From assembly GCF_003985155.1 (NCBI RefSeq), contig NZ_ML133686.1, positions 1 through 32,000 of the forward strand: a DNA stretch of 32,000 bases, written 5' to 3'. Made by a program: the position numbers and the translations under genes. The notes beneath the pieces are model-generated. The model did not search any database, was not told where the DNA came from, and saw nothing but the letters and a program-made list of their open reading frames with translations. This document shows positions 1 through 11,647 of this stretch, piece after piece (within the stretch, counting starts at the first letter, position 1; each line of letters opens with the position of its first letter). Source of the DNA: Rhizobium vallis. GTDB lineage: Bacteria; Pseudomonadota; Alphaproteobacteria; Rhizobiales; Rhizobiaceae.

Positions 1-449
1 CCAAAGCCCTGAAGCTCGTGTCGCTGCACGCCAGGAGATCTCCGCAGCGATCGTCCGTGACCTCTTCACTCTCTGGCAGGCGACCCTGCCACGGGTCTCT
101 GGAAAATCCAAACTCGCCGAAGCTCTGCGGTATGCCATCTCGCGTCGAGACATCTTCGAGCGCTTCCTGACCGACGGCCGCATCGAACTCGACTCCAACA
201 TAGTCGAGCGAGCAATCAGACCCCAAGCGATCACGAGGAAAAATAGTCTATTCGCTGGAAGCGACGGTGGCGGCCGGACTTGGGCGACCATCGCGACGCT
301 CCTGCAAACGGCAAAGATGAATGCAGTCGATCCGCAAGCTTGGTTGACCCAGACGCTTGAGCGCCTTGCGAATGGATGGCCCAGCAGTGAAATCGACGCG
401 CTCATGCCATGGAACTACGCCGCCTGAACGGCCACGGCTTGTCGCTTAC
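1..449 (+). mobile_element. Right end of an IS66-family insertion sequence (the element continues left of the window)
   Basis: Carries the 3' end of an IS66-type transposase ORF. The terminus reads ...GTCGCTTAC at 441-449, the reverse complement of the 5'-GTAAGCG start typical of IS66-family terminal inverted repeats. Confidence 0.8.
2..427 (+). CDS. IS66-family transposase (TnpC), C-terminal 141 codons; the 5' part lies outside the window
   Basis: Open frame from the window edge to TGA 425-427. It is absent from the ORF track because it has no start in the window. The translation ...LAEALRYAISRRDIFERFLTDGRIELDSNIVERAIRPQAITRKNSLFAGSDGGGRTWATIATLLQTAKMNAVDPQAWLTQTLERLANGW... matches the conserved IS66 TnpC C-terminus as I recall it. 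Confidence 0.9.
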   Translation, partial: QSPEARVAARQEISAAIVRDLFTLWQATLPRVSGKSKLAEALRYAISRRDIFERFLTDGRIELDSNIVERAIRPQAITRKNSLFAGSDGGGRTWATIATLLQTAKMNAVDPQAWLTQTLERLANGWPSSEIDALMPWNYAA

Positions 450-662
450 CGTGCTATTCCTGACAAGAGCAAACTGGTAGCGGCCCAAAGAGCCCCATGG
501 CGAGAACTGCAGGACTAGCGCTCCGCCTATGACAATGCCCAGCGCGCTAAGCGCAACGATGGCAAGGGGTGATAGGGGGTTAGGTGTGGTCTGACTGGTG
601 GGGGTAGTCCCCGGGCCCTGACGGCGGACCTCAACTCGCTGCTCAAACGTATCTACACTCAT
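402..662 (-). CDS. Small single-TM ORF whose last ~15 codons and stop lie inside the IS66 terminus; probably disrupted by the IS insertion
   Basis: ATG at 662 preceded by AGGGGA 5 nt upstream. One clear hydrophobic helix (PLAIVALSALGIVIGGALVL). The frame crosses the IS end at 449/450. Confidence 0.3.
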   Translation of the reverse strand: MSVDTFEQRVEVRRQGPGTTPTSQTTPNPLSPLAIVALSALGIVIGGALVLQFSPWGSLGRYQFALVRNSTVSDKPWPFRRRSSMA

Positions 663-1350
663 CGGTTTCCCCTAGGCCGTCGCCTGCGGTACGCCCCCGC
701 ATGCCTGGCCATGACCCCTTGTGATCGGGGAGGTAGATAACAGAGCTTAGCCTGTCCCTGGGGCCTTTAGTTCGGTGAACCTGGACATACGCCACAGGCT
801 CCCCGACCTGGAGAAGGTCAAGGATCGGTATCCCTTCCGGTGGGAGACCATACCGCTAAGCTCAGGCTTTCTACGACCCGGAGCGCCGCGTCTGCGCTCT
901 ACATCTTCTTAGGCTATCCCTTGGAGGTTGCCAATATGCCCCCCTAAGAGTGGTGATCTGCCTCACCTAGGTATTGCTAGTCATGGTGCCATCCTAGGGT
1001 GTCCCGGGGTTGCGGTGCCATGGCGGGTGGAGGCAGTGGGGGCCTGAGGACGTGACCTGTGAGGTGTGAGAGCCAAAGGTGTTCGTGCTTGAGGGGGGGG
1101 TAGTATAGCCCTGCCTCCATCAGGTGATATAGTGCAAGGGGGTGGTCAATGGGGCGTAGGTCTGCCTTGATGATTGTATAGGCCAGTGATGTAGAGTGTA
1201 TATCAAGGGACAACGACCGTTGTTGGGGGGGTGAATTGGTGATACCCAAGTAGGGGGTATGTGATGTGTCCTTAACCTATGAAAATATATTATATAATAT
1301 TTTAGATAAACTGGTGACAAATGTCGCCGCTCGGATTATTTTAGTGCCGC
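663..1350 (+). other. ~690-bp ORF-free leader of the island operon: hairpin-rich 5' part, G-run/GTGAT-repeat middle, AT-rich 3' tract
   Basis: No plus-strand ORF of 60 aa or more; the minus-strand ORFs are P/H-rich artefacts of the C-rich complement. G runs of 4 or more occur only on the plus strand: 1006-1009, 1038-1042, 1093-1100, 1138-1142, 1151-1154, 1225-1231, 1253-1257. GTGAT occurs at 721, 953, 1124, 1187, 1239 and 1261, and GTGAC at 1314. Confidence 0.6.
1271..1310 (+). promoter_or_regulatory. AT-rich tract with a putative promoter for the island operon (or a DNA-unwinding element)
   Basis: The 33-nt stretch 1278-1310 contains only 2 G/C. TATAAT at 1293-1298 has CTTAAC at 1271-1276, 16 nt upstream. 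It sits ~50 nt before the first ORF of the operon. Confidence 0.35.
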
Positions 1351-1917
1351 TTGGGTGCCGCAGTGGTATCCGAGATCAACGAAAGGAATAAGCAAATATC
1401 CTACCAACCATCTCCGGCTGTTGACTGGGCTGTGCCAACGCATAAGCTCTTTCTCTCTGTGGCTGGAATCAAGAAGTCTCCGTTTCACGACTCGCAGCAT
1501 GTTTACGCTTGGCGTCTTTTCGCAATTAACGGAGAAATGATCGCGTCGAACGACAAGGCACCATGGGTCCTCTTCGATGGTCCCGATAATCTTGGGCTTT
1601 ACAGTGCTATTGCCGAGGCGCACGCACACCTTCCAAAAGACTCGACGTTAGCGATGTTTGCGCCACAGGAGGAACTACTCCATGTGTTCGGAGAAGGCCT
1701 GGTTAGCCTGAAGCGAAGAGACTTCAGAAAACGCGACAAGAAGCCTTACGTGCATCGTGACCAGATCAAAGCCGTCTACGATCTGGCGGTCGAAAGCGAG
1801 ATAGAACTTTTAGCCCTCAATCCACATTCGAGCGACGAGCACGAAAATCGCGGTTTGATTGGGGATTTCGCTAGGGATCGTTTGCGTGAAGCGATTAACC
1901 GAGACGTAAATGGCTGA
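1351..1917 (+). CDS. Hypothetical protein, RNase HI-like by motif order but with a degenerate active site
   Basis: 188-aa ORF with TTG start (start uncertain; GTG at 1363 is an alternative). Segments NLGLYSAIAEAHAHL, KRRDFRKRDKKPYVHRDQI and HSSDEHENRGLIGDFARD line up by eye with E. coli RnhA [36 protein letters not shown] and HAGHPENERCDELARA. The stop overlaps the next gene's start by 8 nt. Confidence 0.55.
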   Translation: MGAAVVSEINERNKQISYQPSPAVDWAVPTHKLFLSVAGIKKSPFHDSQHVYAWRLFAINGEMIASNDKAPWVLFDGPDNLGLYSAIAEAHAHLPKDSTLAMFAPQEELLHVFGEGLVSLKRRDFRKRDKKPYVHRDQIKAVYDLAVESEIELLALNPHSSDEHENRGLIGDFARDRLREAINRDVNG

Positions 1918-2665
1918 AGACTTACTCAGGGGGCGTCGCAGCAATGCGGCGCTTTCTCTGGAGATTACCCAACAGCGGCGATGTGCAGCGCTCGGATGCC
2001 GCCGGCAAGTGGAAGTAGCCGAAGGGACCGGCCTTGCTCGCTACCACTGCCGCTATCACGTCCAGCATAAGTCCCGGCACGGCTCTCATTGGCACGCGAC
2101 CTATAAGGCGTCTGAGCTGCGGCCCTACGTGCAGAGCGCGGAACGGTGGATTAAGGAACACCGGGAGGACTCGACTTATCGCGGGACCTATTGGGAGCTG
2201 GAGCACTTCATGGCGGGCGTGGGGCGTGCTGATGTGGCGATGAACTTGCGGGGACAGTCGGCAGAGTATCGCGCTCGGGTTGCCTTTGCGCGTCTGAGGG
2301 CGGCGGAAATTCCCACTCGGCGGCTCATAGCCATCTATCTCGGAGTCTCAGCTCTTATAGAGGATGATTTCGGCAGTCACCGCACCCGGGAGTTCCGAAT
2401 TGTGCAAGCCGCCAAGGCCGTGCACAGGCTGGCCAGCGGCACCCACCGCAAATGGGACGTTTGGGACCCTCGCACTGGCGGCACCCGCAAAGCCGAGCTT
2501 CACGCCTATCCTCGCTCATCAGGGCACGTCCTGAGGAAGATCGGGGAGGTGTTGGAAAAGGCATGCGACGAGCTAGCCCGCGCTGTGGTGCCCGAGGTCA
2601 TTGCAATGCGTACTGAGCGCTTCGGACCACATCCATCTCACCAGCCTGTCGCCAAGGCGTCCTGA
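1910..2665 (+). CDS. Hypothetical protein with an N-terminal Cys/His cluster (possible zinc ribbon)
   Basis: 251-aa ORF. ATG 1910 overlaps the upstream stop (ATGGCTGA), indicating translational coupling. Contains CAALGC-x17-HCRYH-x2-H. No family recognised. Confidence 0.6.
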   Translation: MAEDLLRGRRSNAALSLEITQQRRCAALGCRRQVEVAEGTGLARYHCRYHVQHKSRHGSHWHATYKASELRPYVQSAERWIKEHREDSTYRGTYWELEHFMAGVGRADVAMNLRGQSAEYRARVAFARLRAAEIPTRRLIAIYLGVSALIEDDFGSHRTREFRIVQAAKAVHRLASGTHRKWDVWDPRTGGTRKAELHAYPRSSGHVLRKIGEVLEKACDELARAVVPEVIAMRTERFGPHPSHQPVAKAS

Positions 2666-2707: not shown

Positions 2708-4033
2708 GTGGGGACGCACATGTTGGAGGCTACCTTGGATATTCGAACTCCATCTCGACGGATGCACCTGAAAGACGGCACCGCCAACCAAGCCGAGCGG
2801 GGAAAGGTCCAGCATTTCGACCCGTGGCTGGTGGCCAACGGGACTAACCTCGTAGAACTCGTAGATTGCCTCTTCTCTGTGTTGACCCCGCCGCCTATTA
2901 CCCCAGGCAGACGGCATAGGGCGGACGCGATTGCACGAAGGAAGGCGTGCGCTGAGGCGCTTATCGCAAACCTTGTAATGGCCGCGCTTGGGCCAAGCCG
3001 GAGTCCCGACCTCGTATTGCCGCTGAGGAAGCTGAAGCGTAGCCGTTATGATCGCGAGGACGTGAGCCCCAATGGCCTTCGCTGGGCAACGGCTGAGTTG
3101 GCAGCTTACGGCTACGTTGAGGTGGAAGCAGCGGTCTATAAGGAGGAAAGGACCAGGCTTATTCCCACGCTGAATTTCGTATCGTTGTTAAATCGGCACG
3201 GGGTCAAGAGAGAGGATGTCGGACGAGCTAGAGGCGACGAAACCATCGTGCTTCAAGCGGAAGTAGACCACGAAAAAGTCTTGGTTGACTACCGAGACAC
3301 ACCAGAGACCATAACGCTTCGGGGAGAGATGTCCGCGATAAACGAGGCCCTCGAGAAAGCCGATATCCGTTTCGATGGCGAGAAGCTGGGACCGATCCAC
3401 CTTAGCCGACGGTTCGATGCTGGGAACTCGGCCGCCCCCTACAGCTTCGATCAGCATGGACGGCTTTACGGTGGCCTCTGGGAAAGCCTGCCACGTGTGG
3501 AGCGTCATCGTCTGACCATCGGCGGTGAAACGGTGGCTGACCTCGATTTCTCGTCGATGTTCGTCCGTCTTGCTTATGTAAGGCGGGGCGTGGTTCCGCC
3601 GGACGAGGACCTCTACGCCATACCGGGGCTGGAGCATCATAGAGAAGGGGTCAAGCGCGTTATCGCTTCGCTGTTCTTCCGTGAATCGGAATCGAAGAGA
3701 CTTCCACGCGATGCCAAACCGCTGCTGCCCGAAGGCTGGACAATGGCGCGAGTTCGGAATGCAATTGCTCATGCACATCCTGCTATTGCCCCCTTATTAG
3801 ACACCGATGTGGGCTTTGAGCTAATGGCGACTGAGAGCAACCTGCTCGTGGCTATACTGCTCGATCTGTTCTCGCAAGGCGTCGTCGCGCTCCCAATGCA
3901 TGACGGCCTTATGGTGCCGGAAAGCAAAAAGGAAATTGCCGTCGAGACAATGAAAAGGGTTAGTCTATCGAAGCTCGGCGTTAGCCTTCCAGTGACGGAA
4001 AAGCAAATTCCTCAACCTAGCCAAGCGGCGTAA
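2708..4033 (+). CDS. Compact family-A DNA polymerase / T7-like RNAP-related palm-fingers protein (putative polymerase or replication protein)
   Basis: 441-aa ORF (GTG 2708, or ATG 2720 with GGAGG at 2704-2708). Ordered motifs: GRLYGG..SLPR, ADLD(280)FSSMFVRLAY (motif A-like), R(312)EGVK(316)RVIASLFF (O-helix/motif B-like), LPMH(398)D(399)GLMV (motif C-like). Confidence 0.6.
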   Translation: MGTHMLEATLDIRTPSRRMHLKDGTANQAERGKVQHFDPWLVANGTNLVELVDCLFSVLTPPPITPGRRHRADAIARRKACAEALIANLVMAALGPSRSPDLVLPLRKLKRSRYDREDVSPNGLRWATAELAAYGYVEVEAAVYKEERTRLIPTLNFVSLLNRHGVKREDVGRARGDETIVLQAEVDHEKVLVDYRDTPETITLRGEMSAINEALEKADIRFDGEKLGPIHLSRRFDAGNSAAPYSFDQHGRLYGGLWESLPRVERHRLTIGGETVADLDFSSMFVRLAYVRRGVVPPDEDLYAIPGLEHHREGVKRVIASLFFRESESKRLPRDAKPLLPEGWTMARVRNAIAHAHPAIAPLLDTDVGFELMATESNLLVAILLDLFSQGVVALPMHDGLMVPESKKEIAVETMKRVSLSKLGVSLPVTEKQIPQPSQAA

Positions 4034-4326
4034 ATAACTTGCCCCTATAGCCTCTGGGGCGGGCCTAGAGTAATGGCCTTCATGTTTAGACCCCATCATC
4101 ACCTTCAGCTTAGAGGCAAGCTTCAAACTGCATAGAGGACACTGGAGGCCCTATCTCAAAGTGACCAACTTAAAGCCGCCTCTTCGTTCCCTTGCTGCTC
4201 TGTCCCTGGGGGAGCAGATGATTGATAGGCGATCTACCATCCCGGCGATGGCGCAGGGTCAATCCTTGCGTCTGCCACTAGGAGCCTTAAAGTCTGGCCC
4301 ACAGGTGGCCATTGGCGGGGGGAGTG

Positions 4327-4686
4327 ATGGGGTCTAACGTTTACAGGAAACTACTGCTGGGATGGGCCGTGCTGCCCCTCGTAGGCGCACCACATGCTTA
4401 CGCCTGCGATCAGCCCATTGTGCTATCCAACTGGAAGTCATGCGCAGTGGGGCCTTTGAGCGAAACCGGAGGCGATGCCGATTGGAAAGCCGTCCCGAAG
4501 TGGACCCGAAGCAAAGACCTTAGGCCCTGGTTTATGGACGATCCCCGCCTGCTCGCCAATCATGGTCTGTGTAACGCCAAGTTCCATCGGGTCGTGCTTT
4601 GTGCGCCGGGATGGCAGGAGAGCGACGATAAGGACGCTTGCTGGTACACGATTTGCAGCGGCTACCAGGCATCATTGGGGAATTGA
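4327..4686 (+). CDS. Small secreted Cys-rich protein
   Basis: ATG 4327 after GGGGGGAG; the ORF track starts at TTG 4312. Signal-peptide-like N-terminus MGSNVYRKLLLGWAVLPLVGAPHAYA followed by 7 Cys in the mature part. No family recognised. Confidence 0.5.
   Translation: MGSNVYRKLLLGWAVLPLVGAPHAYACDQPIVLSNWKSCAVGPLSETGGDADWKAVPKWTRSKDLRPWFMDDPRLLANHGLCNAKFHRVVLCAPGWQESDDKDACWYTICSGYQASLGN
4552..4612 (+). repeat. Direct repeat copy A (inside the Cys-rich protein gene)
   Basis: 61 nt, ungapped, 50/61 identical to 5858-5918. Includes an exact 20-mer TTCCATCGGGTCGTGCTTTG at 4582-4601. Confidence 0.85.
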
Positions 4687-4744
4687 AGGCGGGCGTGATC
4701 CCGGCGACTAGACAAGCTTTGCTGTTGCTGCTCAACCTCGCGTT

Positions 4745-5815
4745 ATGTCCGACCGGTTGATTCTCCTTAGTAATGATGGTGCGCAGCTCAATGCCAACGT
4801 TGAGATGCATGAGAGAGGACTCATCCTGCATAGTCGAAGCGGGACGGACCGTAACCGCGATTACCGCGCGGCACTCGAATTGCTGCTGTCCCGGTTAGAT
4901 CAAGCGCAGATCGTCTACCGAGTTTATCTGGACAGCCGGCCGGTTCAGGGGGTCAATCTTTCCGACCGCGAGCTTTCCTTTGATCGTATGTCGCCTGTCG
5001 GAGCGCGTTTTGACGAACTTGTGCGGGCGATGAATAAGGGCAGCTCCAGCCGTGGCGCTTGGCGGCGGCTTTTGATCGAAACCCCCGGCACAGGGCCTGC
5101 GCGGCTCCGCGAAGTCGCAGAAGGCAAATCCAATATAATCCGCCTTCCTGCCACCGACTTGAGGAAGGTCCTACCGTCCCATATCCATAAGGCAGTCCAG
5201 AAGCTTCTTGACGGCGGTGATGCCCCTAACTTTGCTCCATCAAGGGACTATGACGCTTTGACCAGTACGGGCATACCCCTTGCACCAAAGAAAGTATTCG
5301 GTCTGGCTCTTGAGGAAGCATTGGGAATAGAAGCTCATCCTCGACACTTTAGCGCCGGATGGGGTCAAATCTGTTTCGAACTCCTCGAAGAGGCTGGCCT
5401 ATGGATCGTTCCGAAGAAGGAGGGAATTGCCCGGCCCAAGCCCAGCCATGTGGAAATTACGGCAGAGTTGGCCGATCTTGTACCGACCGATGAGGAGCGC
5501 AGTTGGATTGAGGGTAATCCGAAGATCGCATCCCATTTGAGACGTGAAAGACATCCTGGCTTGGCGAAGGAAAAGCGAGCGCAATTCATCGCAGAGCATG
5601 GGCGGCTCTTCTGTGAAGACTGCAAGCTCGATCCTGTCAAACTCTATGGCGAGGAAGCAGGCTCAGCGTGCATCGAGATGCACCACCATATAACGCACGT
5701 GGCAAAGATGCAGGCCGGCCACAGGACGAGGATGGAAGACCTGAAGTGCTTATGCGCGAATTGCCATCGCGTTTTGCACCGCAAGCTCGCTTTAGGGCTC
5801 ACGGTTACGTTCTGA
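4745..5815 (+). CDS. HNH endonuclease-domain protein (McrA-type HNH at the C-terminus, ~270-aa unassigned N-terminal region)
   Basis: 356-aa ORF. The C-terminus CEDCKLD...IEMHHHITHV...MEDLKCLCANCHRVLHRK is a CxxC...HH...CxxCH HNH/His-Me finger signature. Confidence 0.8.
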   Translation: MSDRLILLSNDGAQLNANVEMHERGLILHSRSGTDRNRDYRAALELLLSRLDQAQIVYRVYLDSRPVQGVNLSDRELSFDRMSPVGARFDELVRAMNKGSSSRGAWRRLLIETPGTGPARLREVAEGKSNIIRLPATDLRKVLPSHIHKAVQKLLDGGDAPNFAPSRDYDALTSTGIPLAPKKVFGLALEEALGIEAHPRHFSAGWGQICFELLEEAGLWIVPKKEGIARPKPSHVEITAELADLVPTDEERSWIEGNPKIASHLRRERHPGLAKEKRAQFIAEHGRLFCEDCKLDPVKLYGEEAGSACIEMHHHITHVAKMQAGHRTRMEDLKCLCANCHRVLHRKLALGLTVTF

Positions 5816-5857
5816 TGTGATGGGCAAAATCACCAAGTTGAGGATGGTCATGGGCTC

Positions 5858-5918
5858 CTCGCCAACGACAGTTTGTATAACGGCAATTTCCATCGGGTCG
5901 TGCTTTGAACGGCGGGAT
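5858..5918 (+). repeat. Direct repeat copy B (intergenic, 43 nt after the HNH stop); relic of a paralogous Cys-rich protein gene
   Basis: Same phase as copy A. It translates to LLANDSLYNGNFHRVVL* versus LLANHGLCNAKFHRVVLC in copy A. Exact 20-mer at 5888-5907. Confidence 0.85.
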
Positions 5919-5944
5919 CGTAACAAAAAGGTAGGGGAAGAAGG

Positions 5945-6595
5945 TTGAAGGCACAAATTCAAGCCAATTACGAAAAAAGGCTAAAGCGTTATGCCGCGCT
6001 TGTTCACGGGAATGAGCCGCTGGGGTTGGTTGCGAAGCTGGCGACATATTCATCTCTCTTGAAGCAGCATAAGCTCCATGGTGATGGGCTCCTCAAGATC
6101 GAACCATTGCTTTATCCACTTATCCAGGCTGTAGAGATTGATCTTCATCTTGCCGTGGCAAAGTTGCTCGAAGATCCAAAACGAAGCGACAGAAGTTTGT
6201 TTAAATTTCTCGAATTTTGCCTCACGAACCGGACAAACATTTCGTGGCAAGGAAAAGAGATTTCAGAGGACCTATTATTAAACCAACGTCAACAATTGGA
6301 AACGCATCGCACAACAATCAACAGCGTGATGGGCCGAAGAGATAAATTCTTTGCTCACCTCGACAAGCGTTACTTCAATGAGCCGTCGCGCATCTACACC
6401 GACTTTCCCTTGAGAGAAGAGGAAGTTATAGCTCTGGCGAACTGCGTGATTGGTGTCGTCTCATCTCACCAGACCAATCTCGGTTCGGCCGTCAGTTTCC
6501 ATGCCGGCGAGTTCTATACAATAGCTGTAGAAAATATGGTGCGAAATCTGGAAGCTGGGCGAAAAATGAACTTTCCGGGCCAACTTGAACAATAA
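5945..6595 (+). CDS. HEPN-like (Rx5H) Abi-type protein, putative RNase / abortive-infection effector
   Basis: 216-aa ORF with TTG start after GGGGAAGAAGG. Largely helical-looking. Motif GR(131)RDKFFAH(138)LD fits the R-x4-6-H HEPN signature seen in AbiU2-like families. This is the lowest-GC gene in the window. Confidence 0.45.
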   Translation: MKAQIQANYEKRLKRYAALVHGNEPLGLVAKLATYSSLLKQHKLHGDGLLKIEPLLYPLIQAVEIDLHLAVAKLLEDPKRSDRSLFKFLEFCLTNRTNISWQGKEISEDLLLNQRQQLETHRTTINSVMGRRDKFFAHLDKRYFNEPSRIYTDFPLREEEVIALANCVIGVVSSHQTNLGSAVSFHAGEFYTIAVENMVRNLEAGRKMNFPGQLEQ

Positions 6596-6626
6596 GAGTG
6601 TCAGCGACCACGGTGACGGCGTTGTT

Positions 6627-6893
6627 TTAGTCCGCAGCGTTCGCCTCACATCCGGGGCACTCGTCACCGTAGTCATTCAGCACATTCTGCAACTTATGTC
6701 GAATGGCCTCCTCATTCTCTGAGGACTCCTGGCGTCCTGCCAGTACAGCGTCTTCGAACGCCGAGGAGTCCATCTGATCAACAAGATAGCCATGAAGTTC
6801 GCATTCTTTGAGAGCGCCCGCATCCAACAGCATTGATTCCGCCCACTGGCGGTCAGCTTCGAGGTCCTCCAAAAGCCTTTTTGATCCGCTCAT
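6627..6893 (-). CDS. Small acidic hypothetical protein (88 aa) ending in CPGC
   Basis: Internal ATG 6893 was chosen over the 175-aa ORF-track version. The N-terminal extension of the longer version is Ser-rich and overlaps a better plus-strand ORF. Confidence 0.35.
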   Translation of the reverse strand: MSGSKRLLEDLEADRQWAESMLLDAGALKECELHGYLVDQMDSSAFEDAVLAGRQESSENEEAIRHKLQNVLNDYGDECPGCEANAAD

Positions 6894-7026
6894 TTCCGCA
6901 TCTCCAGGTTTAAAATCGCTATCGCTGAAACATAGGTTATTTCTAGGCGTTTTATAGTCACCATCTTCGATACTGGAAATACCAGAACGGTATTTGAGTT
7001 GTCGTTTCAAGGAATATGAGGATCGT

Positions 7027-7332
7027 ATGGAGCCAATCAAAGTTATCCGCAAAATTGCGGAAGCGATAGATAAATCAGTAGAAGAGACGTCTGACGTGCC
7101 GTGGAAAAATGCAGTCGAAGCTGGAGGCCTCATTTCGATGGGGGACACCGGCACAATTGGAATAGATGAGTGCTTCCAGCGCAGTTTCGGTCCATTGCTG
7201 CTTCAGTTCCAGTACAAGTGGTGGGATACCACGAAGACCTTTAGCCCCGGTCCGGACAGAACACGACTCACCCTTACTCTGCTACATGGAAGTCAGGAAA
7301 TTTCGAAGTACAGCGGAACATACGACACCTAG
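7027..7332 (+). CDS. Hypothetical protein (101 aa)
   Basis: ATG 7027 with GAGGA 4 nt upstream. Divergent from the 6893 gene across a 133-bp AT-rich spacer. No family recognised. Confidence 0.3.
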   Translation: MEPIKVIRKIAEAIDKSVEETSDVPWKNAVEAGGLISMGDTGTIGIDECFQRSFGPLLLQFQYKWWDTTKTFSPGPDRTRLTLTLLHGSQEISKYSGTYDT

Positions 7333-7374: not shown

Positions 7375-8742
7375 TTAGGCAGGCAGCCTAACAGCCTCGA
7401 CGCATCGGCGAGCCTGCTCAAGCAGCGGCCCCCCAGAGTACACTCCAAAGGTCATTCCTTGCCGCTTATGGCCAACAACGACAGCAATAGTGCTCTCCGG
7501 CTGCCCTGCCTGCTCTGCCTTGGTGATGAACCAGCGACGGAAGCTGTGGAAGTTTACGAGACCCCTACGCTTGCCCTCGCGCCTGTCCTCCACGCCAACA
7601 CTGCGACGATATGCTGTAAACTCGTTTGATGTCTTAAAGGACCGCTCACGCAGGGAATCCGATTTTTTTACGCCGGGCCACTCGGGGAAGATGTCATCCT
7701 CAGGTCCTTTGCCCTTCTTCCGGCGCTCAACGATTTCGACTAGGTCAGGGTGGATTGGGCAGAGACGTGGCCCCGGCTCTTTCTTTTGGGGCTTGAACAC
7801 GAACACCCCATCATCTCGGCAGTCCTTCACCTTGAGGCACACAATGGCATCCAGGCGGGCTCCGGAAAGGGCAGCGATCCTCATTAGGTCATCCATCGCC
7901 GGCTCGGCGGGCCCTTTCAGCAAAGTCTTGACTTCCTCGTCGGTAAACGGGCGCTCCTTCTGGTCGGTGGTCTGTCGAGGCTCACGCAAGCGCCGTCCTT
8001 GCCAAATGTTGGAATCGACCTCGTGCCGGTTCTCCAGCCAAGTCCAGTAGACCGAGAGGCGGCTAACGTATTTGTTGAGGGTGACAGGAGTAAGATTGGC
8101 GGTGAGGCTTGGAAGCTCATCACAGAACCGAACGGCCTCCTTCTTGGTCATCACCTGAAGATAGGGCGGCACACCTGCTTTGCTGCACCAATCCTTCAAG
8201 AGTTTTATTGCTCGCTTATCGTCCGCCAATGTGCGGGCCTTAACGTGCGAAGCCGCTAGAAACTTTTCATGGTGAAGGTCGATCGGCGTTCTGTCTCCGC
8301 GCGCTGACCGGGAGAAATCCTTAGCAAGGCGTAAGCGCTCGGGGTCGAAAACTTCATGGCCCTCCTCGTCGGTGGCAATGGGCTTGCCTGCGAGGGATTC
8401 CGCCTGCCAGTCGATCTCCTCATCAATCTCGTCTCGCCGCTCCGGATCGAACGCACTCTTGCGCTGCTCGGCAAATCGAACGGCCTGCTGCATTGCCTGC
8501 TCTCGGCTTATATATCGGGCGGTCTCCAACGATAGAGATGGATTTTCCGCGTGAGCAATGGTCGCTTTGAGGTCCGCTATGACATCCCATTTGAGGCGGT
8601 TTGCCTCCTTAAGGCTGTCAGTCCCCAACGATCTTTTAAGCTTCGTCCCAAGTTTGCCATGAAGCTCTTTCGGCACGTTGACGACAACGCGATACTGATT
8701 GCCGTGGCGTTCTAAAAACATGCGATCAGAAGAGAGGGCCAC
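7375..8742 (-). CDS. int: Tyrosine recombinase / integrase of the island
   Basis: C-terminal catalytic region with ...ALSGARLDAI...(R), HSFRRWF (H-x-x-R), VVGHKRQGMTFGVYS (H...Y). The N-terminal MFLERHGNQYRVVVNVPKEL arm-binding-type domain is common in alphaproteobacterial integrases. Start is ambiguous: GTG 8742 (GGAGG 5 nt upstream), ATG 8721 or TTG 8754. Confidence 0.9.
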   Translation of the reverse strand: MALSSDRMFLERHGNQYRVVVNVPKELHGKLGTKLKRSLGTDSLKEANRLKWDVIADLKATIAHAENPSLSLETARYISREQAMQQAVRFAEQRKSAFDPERRDEIDEEIDWQAESLAGKPIATDEEGHEVFDPERLRLAKDFSRSARGDRTPIDLHHEKFLAASHVKARTLADDKRAIKLLKDWCSKAGVPPYLQVMTKKEAVRFCDELPSLTANLTPVTLNKYVSRLSVYWTWLENRHEVDSNIWQGRRLREPRQTTDQKERPFTDEEVKTLLKGPAEPAMDDLMRIAALSGARLDAIVCLKVKDCRDDGVFVFKPQKKEPGPRLCPIHPDLVEIVERRKKGKGPEDDIFPEWPGVKKSDSLRERSFKTSNEFTAYRRSVGVEDRREGKRRGLVNFHSFRRWFITKAEQAGQPESTIAVVVGHKRQGMTFGVYSGGPLLEQARRCVEAVRLPA

Positions 8743-8752
8743 TAAAGCCTCC

Positions 8753-8773
8753 AAGTACCCAAGAAAGTACCCA
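8753..8773. repeat. Two direct AAGTACCCA 9-mers, 12 bp apart, at the integrase 5' end
   Basis: Exact copies at 8753-8761 and 8765-8773. TACCCAAG also occurs at 1243-1250 in the island leader. Confidence 0.6.
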
Positions 8774-8985: not shown

Positions 8986-9225
8986 ATGAAGTATGTGTAC
9001 ATTCTCTGTAGTGTCGAATTTCCGGATCGCTATTACGTCGGCGTGACCGGTGACCTGAAGTCGCGCTTGGCAAAACACAATGCCGGTGAAGTCTCACATA
9101 CCTCGAAATACGTCCCCTGGTCTCTCAAGACCTACCTCGCTTTCTCCGATGAAGCGCAGGCCTTTGCTTTCGAGAAGTATTTGAAATCGGCGTCGGGCAG
9201 GGCATTCGCAAAGAAAAGACTCTAA
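8986..9225 (+). CDS. Small GIY-YIG nuclease-superfamily protein
   Basis: 79 aa. KYVYILCS...RYYVGVTGDLKSRLAKHN is the GIY-(x)-YVG...R..H motif set of stand-alone GIY-YIG (UPF0213-like) proteins. Confidence 0.8.
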   Translation: MKYVYILCSVEFPDRYYVGVTGDLKSRLAKHNAGEVSHTSKYVPWSLKTYLAFSDEAQAFAFEKYLKSASGRAFAKKRL

Positions 9226-9863: not shown

Positions 9864-9901
9864 ACAATCCGATGGACCGCAACCGCGATCCAAAACCGGC
9901 C

Positions 9902-10444
9902 TCAGCGGCCGTAGGTGACCTCGACGGAGGCTTTGCCGAGTGTATTGGCCCTGACATAGAAGCCGACCATGGCGGCAGGCGCCGTATTCGGCAGCGGAAG
10001 CTTGTCGACCGACAGCGCGTAGACCGTGAACTGATAGTGGTGCGGTTTGTCGCTGGCCGGCGGGCATGCGCCGCCATATCCTGAGGTGCCGAAGTCGGTG
10101 CGGCCTTCCACGACGCCTTCGGGAAGCTTCTTGTCGCCGCTTGCGCCAGTGGCAATCTTCGAGACGTTCGCCGGGATGTTGAAGACCGACCAGTGCCACC
10201 AGCCCGAGCCGGTCGGGGCATCCGGATCGTAGGCCATGACGGCGAAACTCTTGGTGCCCTCGGGAGCGCCGGACCAGGCGAGGTCAGGCGAGATGTTCTT
10301 GCCGGAGCAGCCGAAGCTGTTGAAGACCTGCGCGTCGGCCATGGGCTTGCCCGCGGTCAGATCCGTCGAAGTGAGCTTCATTTCCGCCTGTGCGGCCGTG
10401 GCGCCGATAAGGGACGTTGCGAGAAGTGCTGTGATGAAACGCAT
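9902..10444 (-). CDS. YbhB/YbcL-family PEBP (Raf kinase inhibitor-like) periplasmic protein
   Basis: ATG 10444 (AGGAAAG upstream) gives signal peptide MRFITALLATSLIGATAAQA. Contains the motifs YDPDAPTGSGWWHW and PPASDKPHHYQFTVYAL. Confidence 0.85.
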   Translation of the reverse strand: MRFITALLATSLIGATAAQAEMKLTSTDLTAGKPMADAQVFNSFGCSGKNISPDLAWSGAPEGTKSFAVMAYDPDAPTGSGWWHWSVFNIPANVSKIATGASGDKKLPEGVVEGRTDFGTSGYGGACPPASDKPHHYQFTVYALSVDKLPLPNTAPAAMVGFYVRANTLGKASVEVTYGR

Positions 10445-10482
10445 GTTGCTTTCCTGCGGTTGATGATGCCGCAGAGCTATCG

Positions 10483-11337
10483 TCACGGGGAAAGCACGTC
10501 TGCCCCGCTATGCTCAACTTCTGCCCCGATCCGCTCAACTGGCTCGGATCCGCTGCGCACATGGCGCGGACTGACCCCGAACCGCTCCTTGAAGCGCGCC
10601 GCGAATTGAGACGGCGAGTCGTAGCCGACTTCGAGAGCAACCTGCGCCATGGAAAGGGCCGTCATCTGAACGAGGCCCAAGGCCCGGTTCATCCGTGTAT
10701 CGCTCAGGATCTCGCTGAAGCCGGTATTCTCGGCCGCGAGTCTGCGCCTGAGCGTCGCTTCACTCATGTTGAACGAGCGTGCCGCATGCCGCAGCGTCCA
10801 GCCGAAGGCCGGATCGGTTTCAATCATCTGTCGGAGTCGGTCTTCGAGCCGAGGGCTTCGGCTTTGGCCCAACACCGCCCCGCACAGTGCAAACCAGGTG
10901 ATGAGCTCCATCAAGCGAGCCCTGGCGATGGCGCCGGGAAGCCTGGCGAGATTGCCGGGCTGACAGCAATATTCGAACAAAACAGCCGCTTCATCGGGCA
11001 TGTGGGAAGACCGCGCGGGAAGGGGTGTCGACGGGACGGCGATCGAGCCCATGCGGGCATAGGCTTCCTCGAACAATTGTCTGGGAACAGGGAGCGCCAC
11101 GGTCTGATACTGTTGCGGAGCCTTTGGAATGTTTTCCATCGTCAGCGGTTGATAATCGGGCAGCAGGCCATATGCGCCGGCATCCAGCCGCAAAGGCTTG
11201 TCGTCTGCCATGACGATCTTCGTTCCCGATTGCACCCGTATCAACAAGGGGCTCGTATTGACGATGCGACGAAAACAGGCCCGCCCGCCCTGTCGGATCA
11301 GGGCTCCGGTTGGAATGAGAAAATTCTGATGCTCCAT
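10483..11337 (-). CDS. AraC-family transcriptional regulator
   Basis: C-terminal double HTH (...FNMSEATLRRRLAAENTGFSEIL...MAQVALEVGYDSPSQFAARFKERFGVSP). ATG 11337 (GGGGAA upstream) is preferred; the ORF-track start is 11427. Confidence 0.85.
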   Translation of the reverse strand: MEHQNFLIPTGALIRQGGRACFRRIVNTSPLLIRVQSGTKIVMADDKPLRLDAGAYGLLPDYQPLTMENIPKAPQQYQTVALPVPRQLFEEAYARMGSIAVPSTPLPARSSHMPDEAAVLFEYCCQPGNLARLPGAIARARLMELITWFALCGAVLGQSRSPRLEDRLRQMIETDPAFGWTLRHAARSFNMSEATLRRRLAAENTGFSEILSDTRMNRALGLVQMTALSMAQVALEVGYDSPSQFAARFKERFGVSPRHVRSGSEPVERIGAEVEHSGADVLSP

Positions 11338-11444
11338 ACTTTCCCCAGCTATACGGGATGGCGGCTCATAAGCTCCGTCTGCCAGATCGCGCGACCGAAG
11401 CCAAGATGGCGAATAGCACAAGGCCATTCTGGCAATTCGCTAGC

Positions 11445-11516
11445 GCATGCCACGCAAAAGTGTGCAGCGGTTTGCGATTACGGCATGCGGGAACCAAAAG
11501 CCCCTAAAGCGCGGCA
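11445..11516 (+). repeat. Intergenic hairpin element, copy E1
   Basis: GCATGCC (11445-11451) pairs with GGCATGC (11482-11488). Inner stem CGCAAA/TTTGCG. Conserved loop AGTGTGCAGCGG. The tail ...CCTAAAGCGCGGCA is shared with E3. Confidence 0.7.
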
Positions 11517-11647
11517 AGCGAACAGGAAAGATCGCGGCGCGCTTTCAAATATTTTCTGCCCATTCCATCGCCTTTGCCAATTCCTCAATGAGAGGATCTA
11601 TCCTTATTGCCGCAATCTCAGCGATTCGGCTTCAGGACCTTCAGCCA

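Follow-up and report, generated by a model that had tools for sequence, protein, structure and literature searches.

What kind of enzyme is encoded by a 441-residue open reading frame (ORF) lying close to the start of contig NZ_ML133686.1 of Rhizobium vallis, and what might it do in the mobile island that carries it? The question was raised by an earlier note on the first 32,000 nucleotides of this contig (the window hereafter), in which motifs A, B and C of polymerases of the PolA and T7 RNA polymerase (RNAP) kind had been read, in that order, in a protein much smaller than canonical enzymes. We found that the protein fits the TV-Pol family, defined computationally by Iyer, Abhiman and Aravind in 2008 (Biol Direct 3:39, PMC2579912), both by the published sequence criteria and by the published description, and within it the alphaproteobacterial subgroup linked to resolvases and integrases. 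As family and genomic context were both published in 2008, this is a sound annotation and not a new class. Coordinates of all features are reported in Table 1.

The ORF listing of the window has a single ORF at this place, with a GTG start. NCBI holds a 100% identical protein (Rhizobium vallis EFQ99_00020) of 423 residues, starting from M19 (ATG at 2762). Since conservation among homologs begins near residue 36, either start, the GTG at 2708 or the ATG at 2762, is possible. The ordered motifs are real: HGRLYGG occupies residues 250-256, and D280, R312, K316, H398 and D399 are all found as the note had numbered them. Its remark on size held as well, the catalytic aspartates being 119 residues apart, compared to 177 in Klenow, with no exonuclease domain present.

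The sole library match of the polymerase was PHROG phrog_4756, of function not known, with an expect value (E) of 1.7e-24 over residues 108-417. Pfam, NCBIfam and PADLOC gave nothing for the polymerase, and nothing for 70 homologs, at E values up to 10. The earlier note had looked to the Pfam families DNA_pol_A and RNA_pol for confirmation, and neither matched the polymerase; for DNA_pol_A (PF00476) no match was found for the 70 homologs either at E<=10, and the curated threshold was not reached. Searches of the PDB sequences with phmmer and with a hidden Markov model (HMM) of the polymerase family gave noise only, no polymerase being matched. UniRef calls one homolog (P0001) and others 'family A palm domain-containing', which is a label of the source and not a test. 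The family is very large: an exhaustive profile search with it returned 9,457 cluster representatives at E<=1e-3, of which 2,047 remained at E<=1e-30, hence a size of about 9,500 when counted as 50%-identity clusters. Nearly all members, among 150 cluster representatives listed, are 400-490 residues long.

An AlphaFold2 model was built from a 70-sequence alignment and reached a predicted local distance difference test score of 90.3 and a predicted template-modelling (TM) score of 0.88. Foldseek of this model against the PDB gave 63 matches at E<=1e-3, the top 50 of which were all family A DNA polymerases (Bst, Taq, Aquifex, apicoplast Pol), the best being Bst (1xwl, E=3e-5, probability 1.0). 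Global TM against the PDB family A enzymes was only about 0.3, as expected when a core of about 240 residues is common to a protein of 441 residues and enzymes of 530-830. Profiles were then compared with hhalign, using a 100-sequence polymerase profile and a PolA reference profile of 10 members (E. coli DNA polymerase I, or Pol I, T7 DNA polymerase and eight diverse phage PolAs). This gave E=0.010-0.016 with motifs A, B and C colinear; the observed score, 26.7, was attained by 1 of 200 block-shuffled templates (null 16.5 +/- 3.2). Sequence alone thus suggests kinship to PolA, and it is the fold match that carries weight. With this match significant, and with D280, K316 and D399 aligned to Klenow D705, K758 and D882, the family A palm proposed earlier stands, and we conclude from the predicted structure that the protein is a highly diverged polymerase of family A type. 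The double likeness to PolA and T7 RNAP, on the other hand, was confirmed in its first half only, as no RNAP was found among the top 50 PDB fold matches. Comparison by hhalign with the single T7 RNAP sequence gave E=0.25-0.58 in a region outside the motifs, single-sequence comparisons being powerless for Pol I and T7 DNA polymerase too. Nothing supports a T7-RNAP-like identity.

Conservation was scored on an alignment of 100 homologs, reaching out to distant 50%-cluster representatives. Eleven residues were invariant in all 100 sequences: G251, R252, R266, D280, D301, Y303, R312, K316, S377, H398 and D399. By hhalign, motif A (ADLD280FSSMFVRL) aligned to Klenow SAD705YSQIELRI, motif B (HR312EGVK316) to QR754RSAK758, and motif C (LPMH398D399G) to QVH881D882E. 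The hairpin carrying HGRLYGG, with strands 233-238 and 250-254 in the model, was left unaligned by hhalign, and R252 would be the equivalent of Klenow R668; this arginine is the 'absolutely conserved arginine' of TV-Pols (PMC2579912). Further on, the model shows the secondary structure of a PolA palm, with strand 274-281, helix 284-292, fingers helices 312-389, and a hairpin 395-397/400-404 having the HD at its turn, followed by helix 405-423 and strand 429-432, that is, a beta-alpha...beta-beta-alpha-beta topology. Klenow, Bst and Taq, the kind that gave the best solved-structure matches, have the same colinear motif A Asp, motif B R...K and motif C HD. The protein differs from them by fingers some 60 residues shorter, another N-terminal region, and no 3'-5' exonuclease domain or vestige of one, and it stays below the sequence-family thresholds.

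Residues by which canonical family A enzymes select dNTPs (E710, F762, Y766, and the HDE of motif C) are not kept among the 100 homologs. At the steric-gate position of E710, here F285, an aromatic residue is found (Phe in 83 homologs, Tyr in 6, His in 4, Trp in 2) and never Glu; the F762 position is variable (S/A/N/V/L), and so is that of Y766 (Phe in 45, Ser in 40). At the E883 position, here G400, Gly is present in 92 of the 100; members from Thioclava and from Vibrio phages have Ser there. The choice between NTPs and dNTPs is therefore unpredictable from these positions, as the earlier note had said. Its other suggestion, that HDG leans towards the RNAP-type HDS, loses its ground, HDG and HDS varying inside the family.

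The same residues bear on whether the protein could be a single-subunit RNAP with T7-like chemistry, transcribing island genes or making RNA primers. T7-like RNAPs belong to the same superfamily, have HD plus a small residue at motif C (HDS in T7 RNAP, HDG or HDS here) and an extra N-terminal domain, and start chains de novo. The missing Glu gate and the unconserved F762 and Y766 equivalents would suit such an activity, and T7 RNAP was the sole polymerase among the non-significant fold matches (E=2.7) of OrfB, the partner protein described below. Against this, all top 50 fold matches are DNA polymerases, Pfam RNA_pol does not match, and an aromatic steric-gate residue would more likely exclude a 2'-OH. 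The protein is moreover half the size of T7-like RNAPs, with no recognisable specificity loop or promoter-binding domain. Finally, CCPol-MP, the only characterised relative (see below), uses dNTPs exclusively (PMC7581432). An RNAP appears decidedly improbable.

The N-terminal region upstream of the palm is conserved throughout the family, and also in phage proteins that match the polymerase in structure over its full length (TM 0.5-0.7). It may consist of the thumb plus an inserted DNA-binding module: the model has long helices at 72-94 and 199-217, and hhalign of the thumb region was at negligible confidence. Within it, residues 121-163 are modelled as helix 121-133, strands 137-140 and 149-153, and helix 155-163, which makes a winged-helix-like fold plausible there; phrog_35787 matches residues 122-171 with E=0.003, HxlR and Rrf2 matches were weak and limited to single homologs, and one homolog is annotated at its source as a MarR regulator. 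A winged helix could also belong to a polymerase-derived protein that no longer polymerises, for instance an origin-binding initiator or a regulator, and vestigial relatives reduced to the RRM exist in Firmicutes (Rice 2023, PMC10061031). The catalytic and triphosphate-binding residues are, however, all invariant in 100 divergent sequences, a pattern that inactive derivatives do not show, and a loss of activity is hardly to be expected.

TV-Pols were described as having an N-terminal thumb of two antiparallel helices in a coiled coil, a beta-hairpin whose Arg is absolutely conserved, two conserved Asp in the palm, and a conserved Asp plus RxxxK in the fingers (PMC2579912). Here D280 and D399 are invariant in a palm of PolA topology, D301, R312 and K316 are invariant in 100 of 100 sequences, and so is the G251-R252 pair of the hairpin. 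The protein has no Pfam or NCBIfam domain, and no nuclease neighbour is conserved. Like TV-Pols, which are 400-600 residues long, it is thus a minimal, nuclease-free, family-A-like core with the same hairpin, palm and fingers residues. One TV-Pol subset has an extra all-helical domain, TV-PolN, also found as a stand-alone adjacent gene; it is tied to a gamma-delta resolvase, a lambda-type integrase or a transposase, and occurs in hot spots of mobile elements and restriction-modification (R-M) operons in Brucella, Methylobacterium, Rhodopseudomonas and others (PMC2579912). The present context is of this kind, with a helical protein, OrfB, encoded next to the polymerase or fused to its N-terminus, a resolvase, an integrase, and R-M and Abi neighbours. 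Hosts agree too: they are alphaproteobacterial in both cases, and Methylobacterium is in the list of Iyer et al. as well as in our loci. The CCCH cluster of the partner, orfA, and the defence cargo found here are not mentioned by Iyer et al. (2008). TV-Pols of the Sputnik V13 type, linked to D5, come with a helicase, and the present subgroup does not.

Relatives were also looked for in phages, virophages and plasmids. Foldseek against BFVD returned eleven full-length matches, all phage proteins of 400-450 residues (TM 0.49-0.70, E from 1e-16 to 1e-23), including those of Aeromonas phages 2L372X and 4L372D and of Rheinheimera phage Barba31A. Virophage replication proteins of about 780 residues came next, among them that of Zamilon (E=4.9e-5, probability 1.0), and then canonical phage PolAs. 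Sputnik V13, a relative of the Zamilon protein, is a founding TV-Pol (PMC2579912). The family HMM matched a protein of Vibrio phage K354 (locus L058, 4224-5873; E=5e-30) and a truncated copy on a Thioclava plasmid (E=3e-51). With tblastn, phages gave only partial matches in three Vibrio phages (K354, K406 and K408), and plasmids gave Neorhizobium and the Thioclava copy, truncated by IS21. All genomic neighbours of the phage homologs are hypothetical. The phage and plasmid contexts were uninformative. The TV-Pol reported by Iyer et al. in Microcystis phage Ma-LMM01 was not located in its whole genome: MAP_134, a 'putative DNA primase' (locus L071, 33470-34663), was rejected as being of DnaG/TOPRIM type, MAP_030 gave no match, and the best hhalign hit in that genome was spurious. 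MAP_134 adjoins an IS607-type resolvase and transposase pair.

We next consider the genes around the polymerase, as seen in a survey of 54 related polymerase loci in which all neighbourhood ORFs were clustered. The gene orfB lies immediately upstream of the polymerase gene and on the same strand in at least 37 of the 54 loci, down to 29% identity. The two genes overlap by 4 nt in 5 loci, and in one 667-residue protein (P0126) OrfB is fused to the polymerase's N-terminus. OrfB carries a zinc-type CCCH cluster, in which C25, C47 and H50 are invariant and C30 nearly so, and its strongly conserved blocks are RHGSHW, EFRIVQAAKAVHRLASGTH, HAYPRSSGxVLR and GPHPSH. Its model (predicted local distance difference test score 82.9) has ten helices and one hairpin. 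No solved fold (best E=0.65), PDB sequence or Pfam family matched it, and T7 RNAP, matched in fold at E=2.7, was set aside as noise. Going by the description of Iyer et al., OrfB is probably their stand-alone TV-PolN. The third gene of the operon, orfA, is a variable member from a small family, found in the window and in loci L001, L003, L008, L009 and L011; in L009 and L011, which lack orfB, the orfA-like gene lies right against the polymerase gene. A match of OrfA to RNase H was sub-threshold (E=0.0018, 18 bits for a cut-off of 170) and was not retained.

The operon belongs to an integrative mobile island, found in Rhizobium and in further alphaproteobacteria. A serine resolvase was found in 39 of the 54 loci and a tyrosine integrase in 37, the Pfam Resolvase domain being confirmed in L001 and L002. 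No resolvase is present in the window itself. In L003, to which the window is most closely related, the polymerase has the resolvase about 4.3 kb upstream, a place that would fall to the left of base 1 of the window; locus tags 00015 and 00020 suggest that the contig starts near there. The integrase, which marks the island's right-hand end, shares 84-91% identity with its counterparts in the closest loci. GC content of the island region is 0.48-0.56, against about 0.60-0.66 elsewhere in the window. Cargo varies among loci (AbiJ, type I R-M, SIR2, AbiU2).

Being always amid defence genes (AbiU2, AbiJ, type I R-M, SIR2, a type IV restriction endonuclease-like gene), the orfB-polymerase pair could itself be an anti-phage or counter-defence effector, making nucleic acid upon infection like the AbiK and DRT reverse transcriptases. 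The orfA/orfB/TV-Pol operon would then be a self-contained synthesising unit, with the CCCH partner as a sensor or template holder. This would explain why the operon is free of a helicase and occurs only in defence hot spots and phages, and a compact two-gene unit with no helicase, no recognisable origin and homologs in phages is in keeping with it. If true, this would be the first such effector built on a family-A-type palm instead of a reverse transcriptase. However, the pair is constant and travels with the recombinases while the defence genes vary, which is the pattern of a mobile-element core and not of cargo. PADLOC gives no match, and Iyer et al. also read the context as that of a mobile element (PMC2579912). 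We regard an effector function, for the pair as for the entire operon, as quite unlikely.

To our knowledge, CCPol is the sole relative of TV-Pols to have been assayed experimentally, and it is a distant one. It is part of CCPol-MP, found in SCCmec (Bebel et al. 2020, PMC7581432; Rice 2023, PMC10061031), which makes DNA primers de novo, with dNTPs only, when its small partner MP provides single-stranded DNA binding; CCPol by itself merely extends primers (PMC7581432). The two systems have in common an exonuclease-less enzyme of family A type, a recombinase-mobilised island, and a small operon partner that belongs to no known family. They differ in several respects. CCPol is recognisably a PolA by sequence (CDD 'PolA', 15-22% identity) and keeps the E710 and F762 equivalents, whereas the present polymerase has no Pfam match and has Phe at the E710 position. 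MP is an OB-fold single-stranded DNA-binding protein encoded downstream, whereas OrfB is helical, carries a CCCH cluster and is encoded upstream. The SCCmec operon has the Cch2 helicase, which the present island lacks, and CCPol-MP is found in Firmicutes, not in alphaproteobacteria.

On these grounds we think it probable, with some reserve, that the TV-Pol enzyme, encoded in the constant core of the mobile island, replicates the island after excision, probably priming its own synthesis. The polymerase is encoded in an operon with orfB and orfA. D280 and D399 would perform two-metal catalysis and R312 and K316 would bind the triphosphate, while OrfB (and OrfA) would help to hold a single-stranded template, so that synthesis would start without a pre-existing primer, in the primase-polymerase mode of CCPol-MP. 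The excised island would be copied in this way. We thus infer catalytic activity, the synthesis of DNA and not RNA, de novo priming and a role in island replication, from the analogy with CCPol-MP and from the argument of Iyer et al., who inferred a primase-polymerase role from the displacement of prim-pol domains by TV-Pols (PMC2579912). Archaeo-eukaryotic primase (AEP) prim-pols and piPolB are proposed functional analogues, as self-priming replicases of small integrative elements; in terms of descent they are unlike the present polymerase, the AEP catalytic domain being unrelated and piPolB belonging to family B.

Several observations weigh against this proposal. Evidence for PolA kinship taken from sequences without the fold is weak (hhalign E of about 0.01; no Pfam, NCBIfam or PDB-sequence match), and no ORF of Ma-LMM01, named as a TV-Pol link, was detected with the family HMM at E<=0.1 or with hhalign. 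The biochemical precedent comes solely from the distant CCPol-MP, outside this subgroup. OrfB, helical with its CCCH cluster, has no OB-fold like that of MP, and it is missing in about one quarter of the loci. No helicase cluster is conserved in the 54 neighbourhoods, unlike the situation of CCPol-MP-Cch2 and of the D5-linked TV-Pols, so that a complete replication module is not evident. No origin, iterons or tandem repeats were found near the operon.

Some of these observations would fit a DNA polymerase that depends on a primer and has no primase of its own, filling gaps or repairing junctions during recombinase-mediated movement, or extending host primers. Such an enzyme would act as CCPol does by itself, and the want of a recognisable OB-fold or primase-type partner, the loci without orfB and the absence of a helicase are all compatible with it. 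But neither serine nor tyrosine recombinases leave gaps that would need filling. In addition, the tight link of the polymerase, by operon and by fusion, with a zinc-cluster protein recalls the DNA-binding accessory modules that primases have, and the primase-polymerase role inferred by Iyer et al. (PMC2579912) points the other way. We therefore consider primer dependence unlikely, and retain replication of the excised island by a self-priming TV-Pol as the preferred reading.

TV-Pols are regarded as the smallest functional core of the entire superfamily of Pol I and T7 RNAP. The present subgroup is very large, has no Pfam model, is annotated as 'hypothetical', and occupies a central place in islands by which anti-phage genes move among rhizobia. 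If priming and extension are both true, an enzyme of about 420 residues with a small zinc-binding partner would make a compact tool for biotechnology, and would reveal how a fold that needs a primer turns into a primase. In practical terms, the gain is an improved annotation together with a three-gene unit (orfA, orfB, pol) that is now defined.

Table 1. Features of the island and of the polymerase, in window coordinates.
Feature	Position	Strand	Basis
Structured RNA, ~250 nt, 10 helices, 62 base pairs	655-910	-	Folding, covariation
AT-rich palindrome with divergent sigma-70-like matches, immediately upstream of orfA	1275-1342		Sigma-70-like matches
orfA, 188 aa, variable third operon member	1351-1917	+	Loci comparison
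orfB, 251 aa, CCCH, mostly alpha-helical	1910-2665	+	Loci comparison, alignment, model
TV-Pol-type minimal family-A-like polymerase gene, 441 aa	2708-4033	+	ORF, homologs, AlphaFold2 model, fold matches, alignment
N-terminal region, aa 36-198: helices 46-58 and 72-94, then alpha/beta segment	2813-3301	+	AlphaFold2 secondary structure
Possible winged-helix-like segment, aa 121-163, including GLRWATAELAAYGYVEVE	3068-3196	+	AlphaFold2, phrog_35787
HGRLYGG beta-hairpin, invariant G251-R252	3455-3475	+	AlphaFold2 model, 100-sequence alignment
Motif A: strand 274-281 ending in D280 (Klenow D705), helix 284-292	3527-3583	+	AlphaFold2, hhalign, alignment
Fingers: invariant D301 and Y303; O-helix-like helix 312-322 with R312xxxK316 (Klenow R754/K758)	3608-3682	+	AlphaFold2, hhalign, alignment
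Motif C: beta-turn-beta 395-397/400-404, H398-D399 (Klenow H881-D882)	3887-3919	+	AlphaFold2, hhalign, alignment
Variable region between polymerase and integrase: Cys-rich ORF, HNH gene, AbiU2, ea8.5-like	4312-7154		Pfam, PHROG, PADLOC, loci
Cys-rich 124-aa ORF with signal-peptide-like N-terminus, directly downstream of polymerase	4312-4686	+	66-89% identity in five closest loci
HNH / type IV restriction-like gene	4745-5815		PADLOC mREase_IV E=1.9e-8 (N-terminal), PHROG HNH E=4.9e-8 (C-terminal)
AbiU2 HEPN	5945-6595		Pfam E=1.8e-18
Lambda ea8.5-like gene	6627-7154	-	E=7e-5, below cut-off
Tyrosine integrase (DUF6538 + Phage_integrase), right-hand island end	7375-8754	-	Pfam, loci

To the left of the operon, the block of the structured RNA is more conserved than the neighbouring genes. 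Its predicted folding energy is -74.5 kcal/mol on the minus strand compared to -39.6 on the plus strand, with many strand-specific G-U pairs. Covariation was assessed twice: 16 island copies had 17 compensatory pairs, against 5.8 +/- 1.4 in shuffles, and 24 divergent metagenomic copies, in an alignment fitted to the model, had 180 compensatory cells against 62.5 +/- 6.7. No Rfam family matched the block. The RNA always ends at a Shine-Dalgarno-like stretch followed by an ATG, beyond which the ORFs are unrelated, encoding among others small membrane proteins and XRE-type regulators. It occurs in at least 24 metagenome contigs. A retron-like role, as template or partner of the polymerase, was rejected: the RNA is present in only 16 of the 54 polymerase loci, and a polymerase is found near only 3 of the 24 metagenomic copies. 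The RNA is independent of the polymerase, and is a candidate for a new cis-regulatory, riboswitch-like leader of mobile-element genes. At the ATG ending the leader in the window starts an 86-aa ORF (402-662, minus strand) with a hydrophobic segment, which may encode a small protein of membrane or toxin-like kind that the leader controls; homologs of it with the motif SPLGSLGRYQ (cluster 6) follow the leader in about 13 loci. The AT-rich stretch upstream of orfA would be a candidate promoter/operator or origin unwinding element.

Between the polymerase and the integrase, L003 has no genes corresponding to 4745-7154. The Cys-rich ORF that follows the polymerase gene matched no family. A 77-nt direct repeat (77% identical, 4536-4612/5842-5918) brackets the HNH / type IV restriction-like gene, which suggests that this gene arrived as a cassette. 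Beyond the integrase, another direct repeat of about 180 nt (9688-9865/11603-11790) has copies 80-96% identical and about 1,920 bp apart, both of which match the host flank beside the integrase in L001, where a DUF1275 gene starts. It would seem that an attachment or target region was duplicated, and that a second small insert (about 9866-11602) stands in tandem with the island. Just outside the integrase lies a 79-aa ORF (8986-9225, plus strand), which begins MKYVYILCSVEFPDRYYVGVTGDLKSRLAKHN and resembles, by eye, a GIY-YIG nuclease domain of the URI type.

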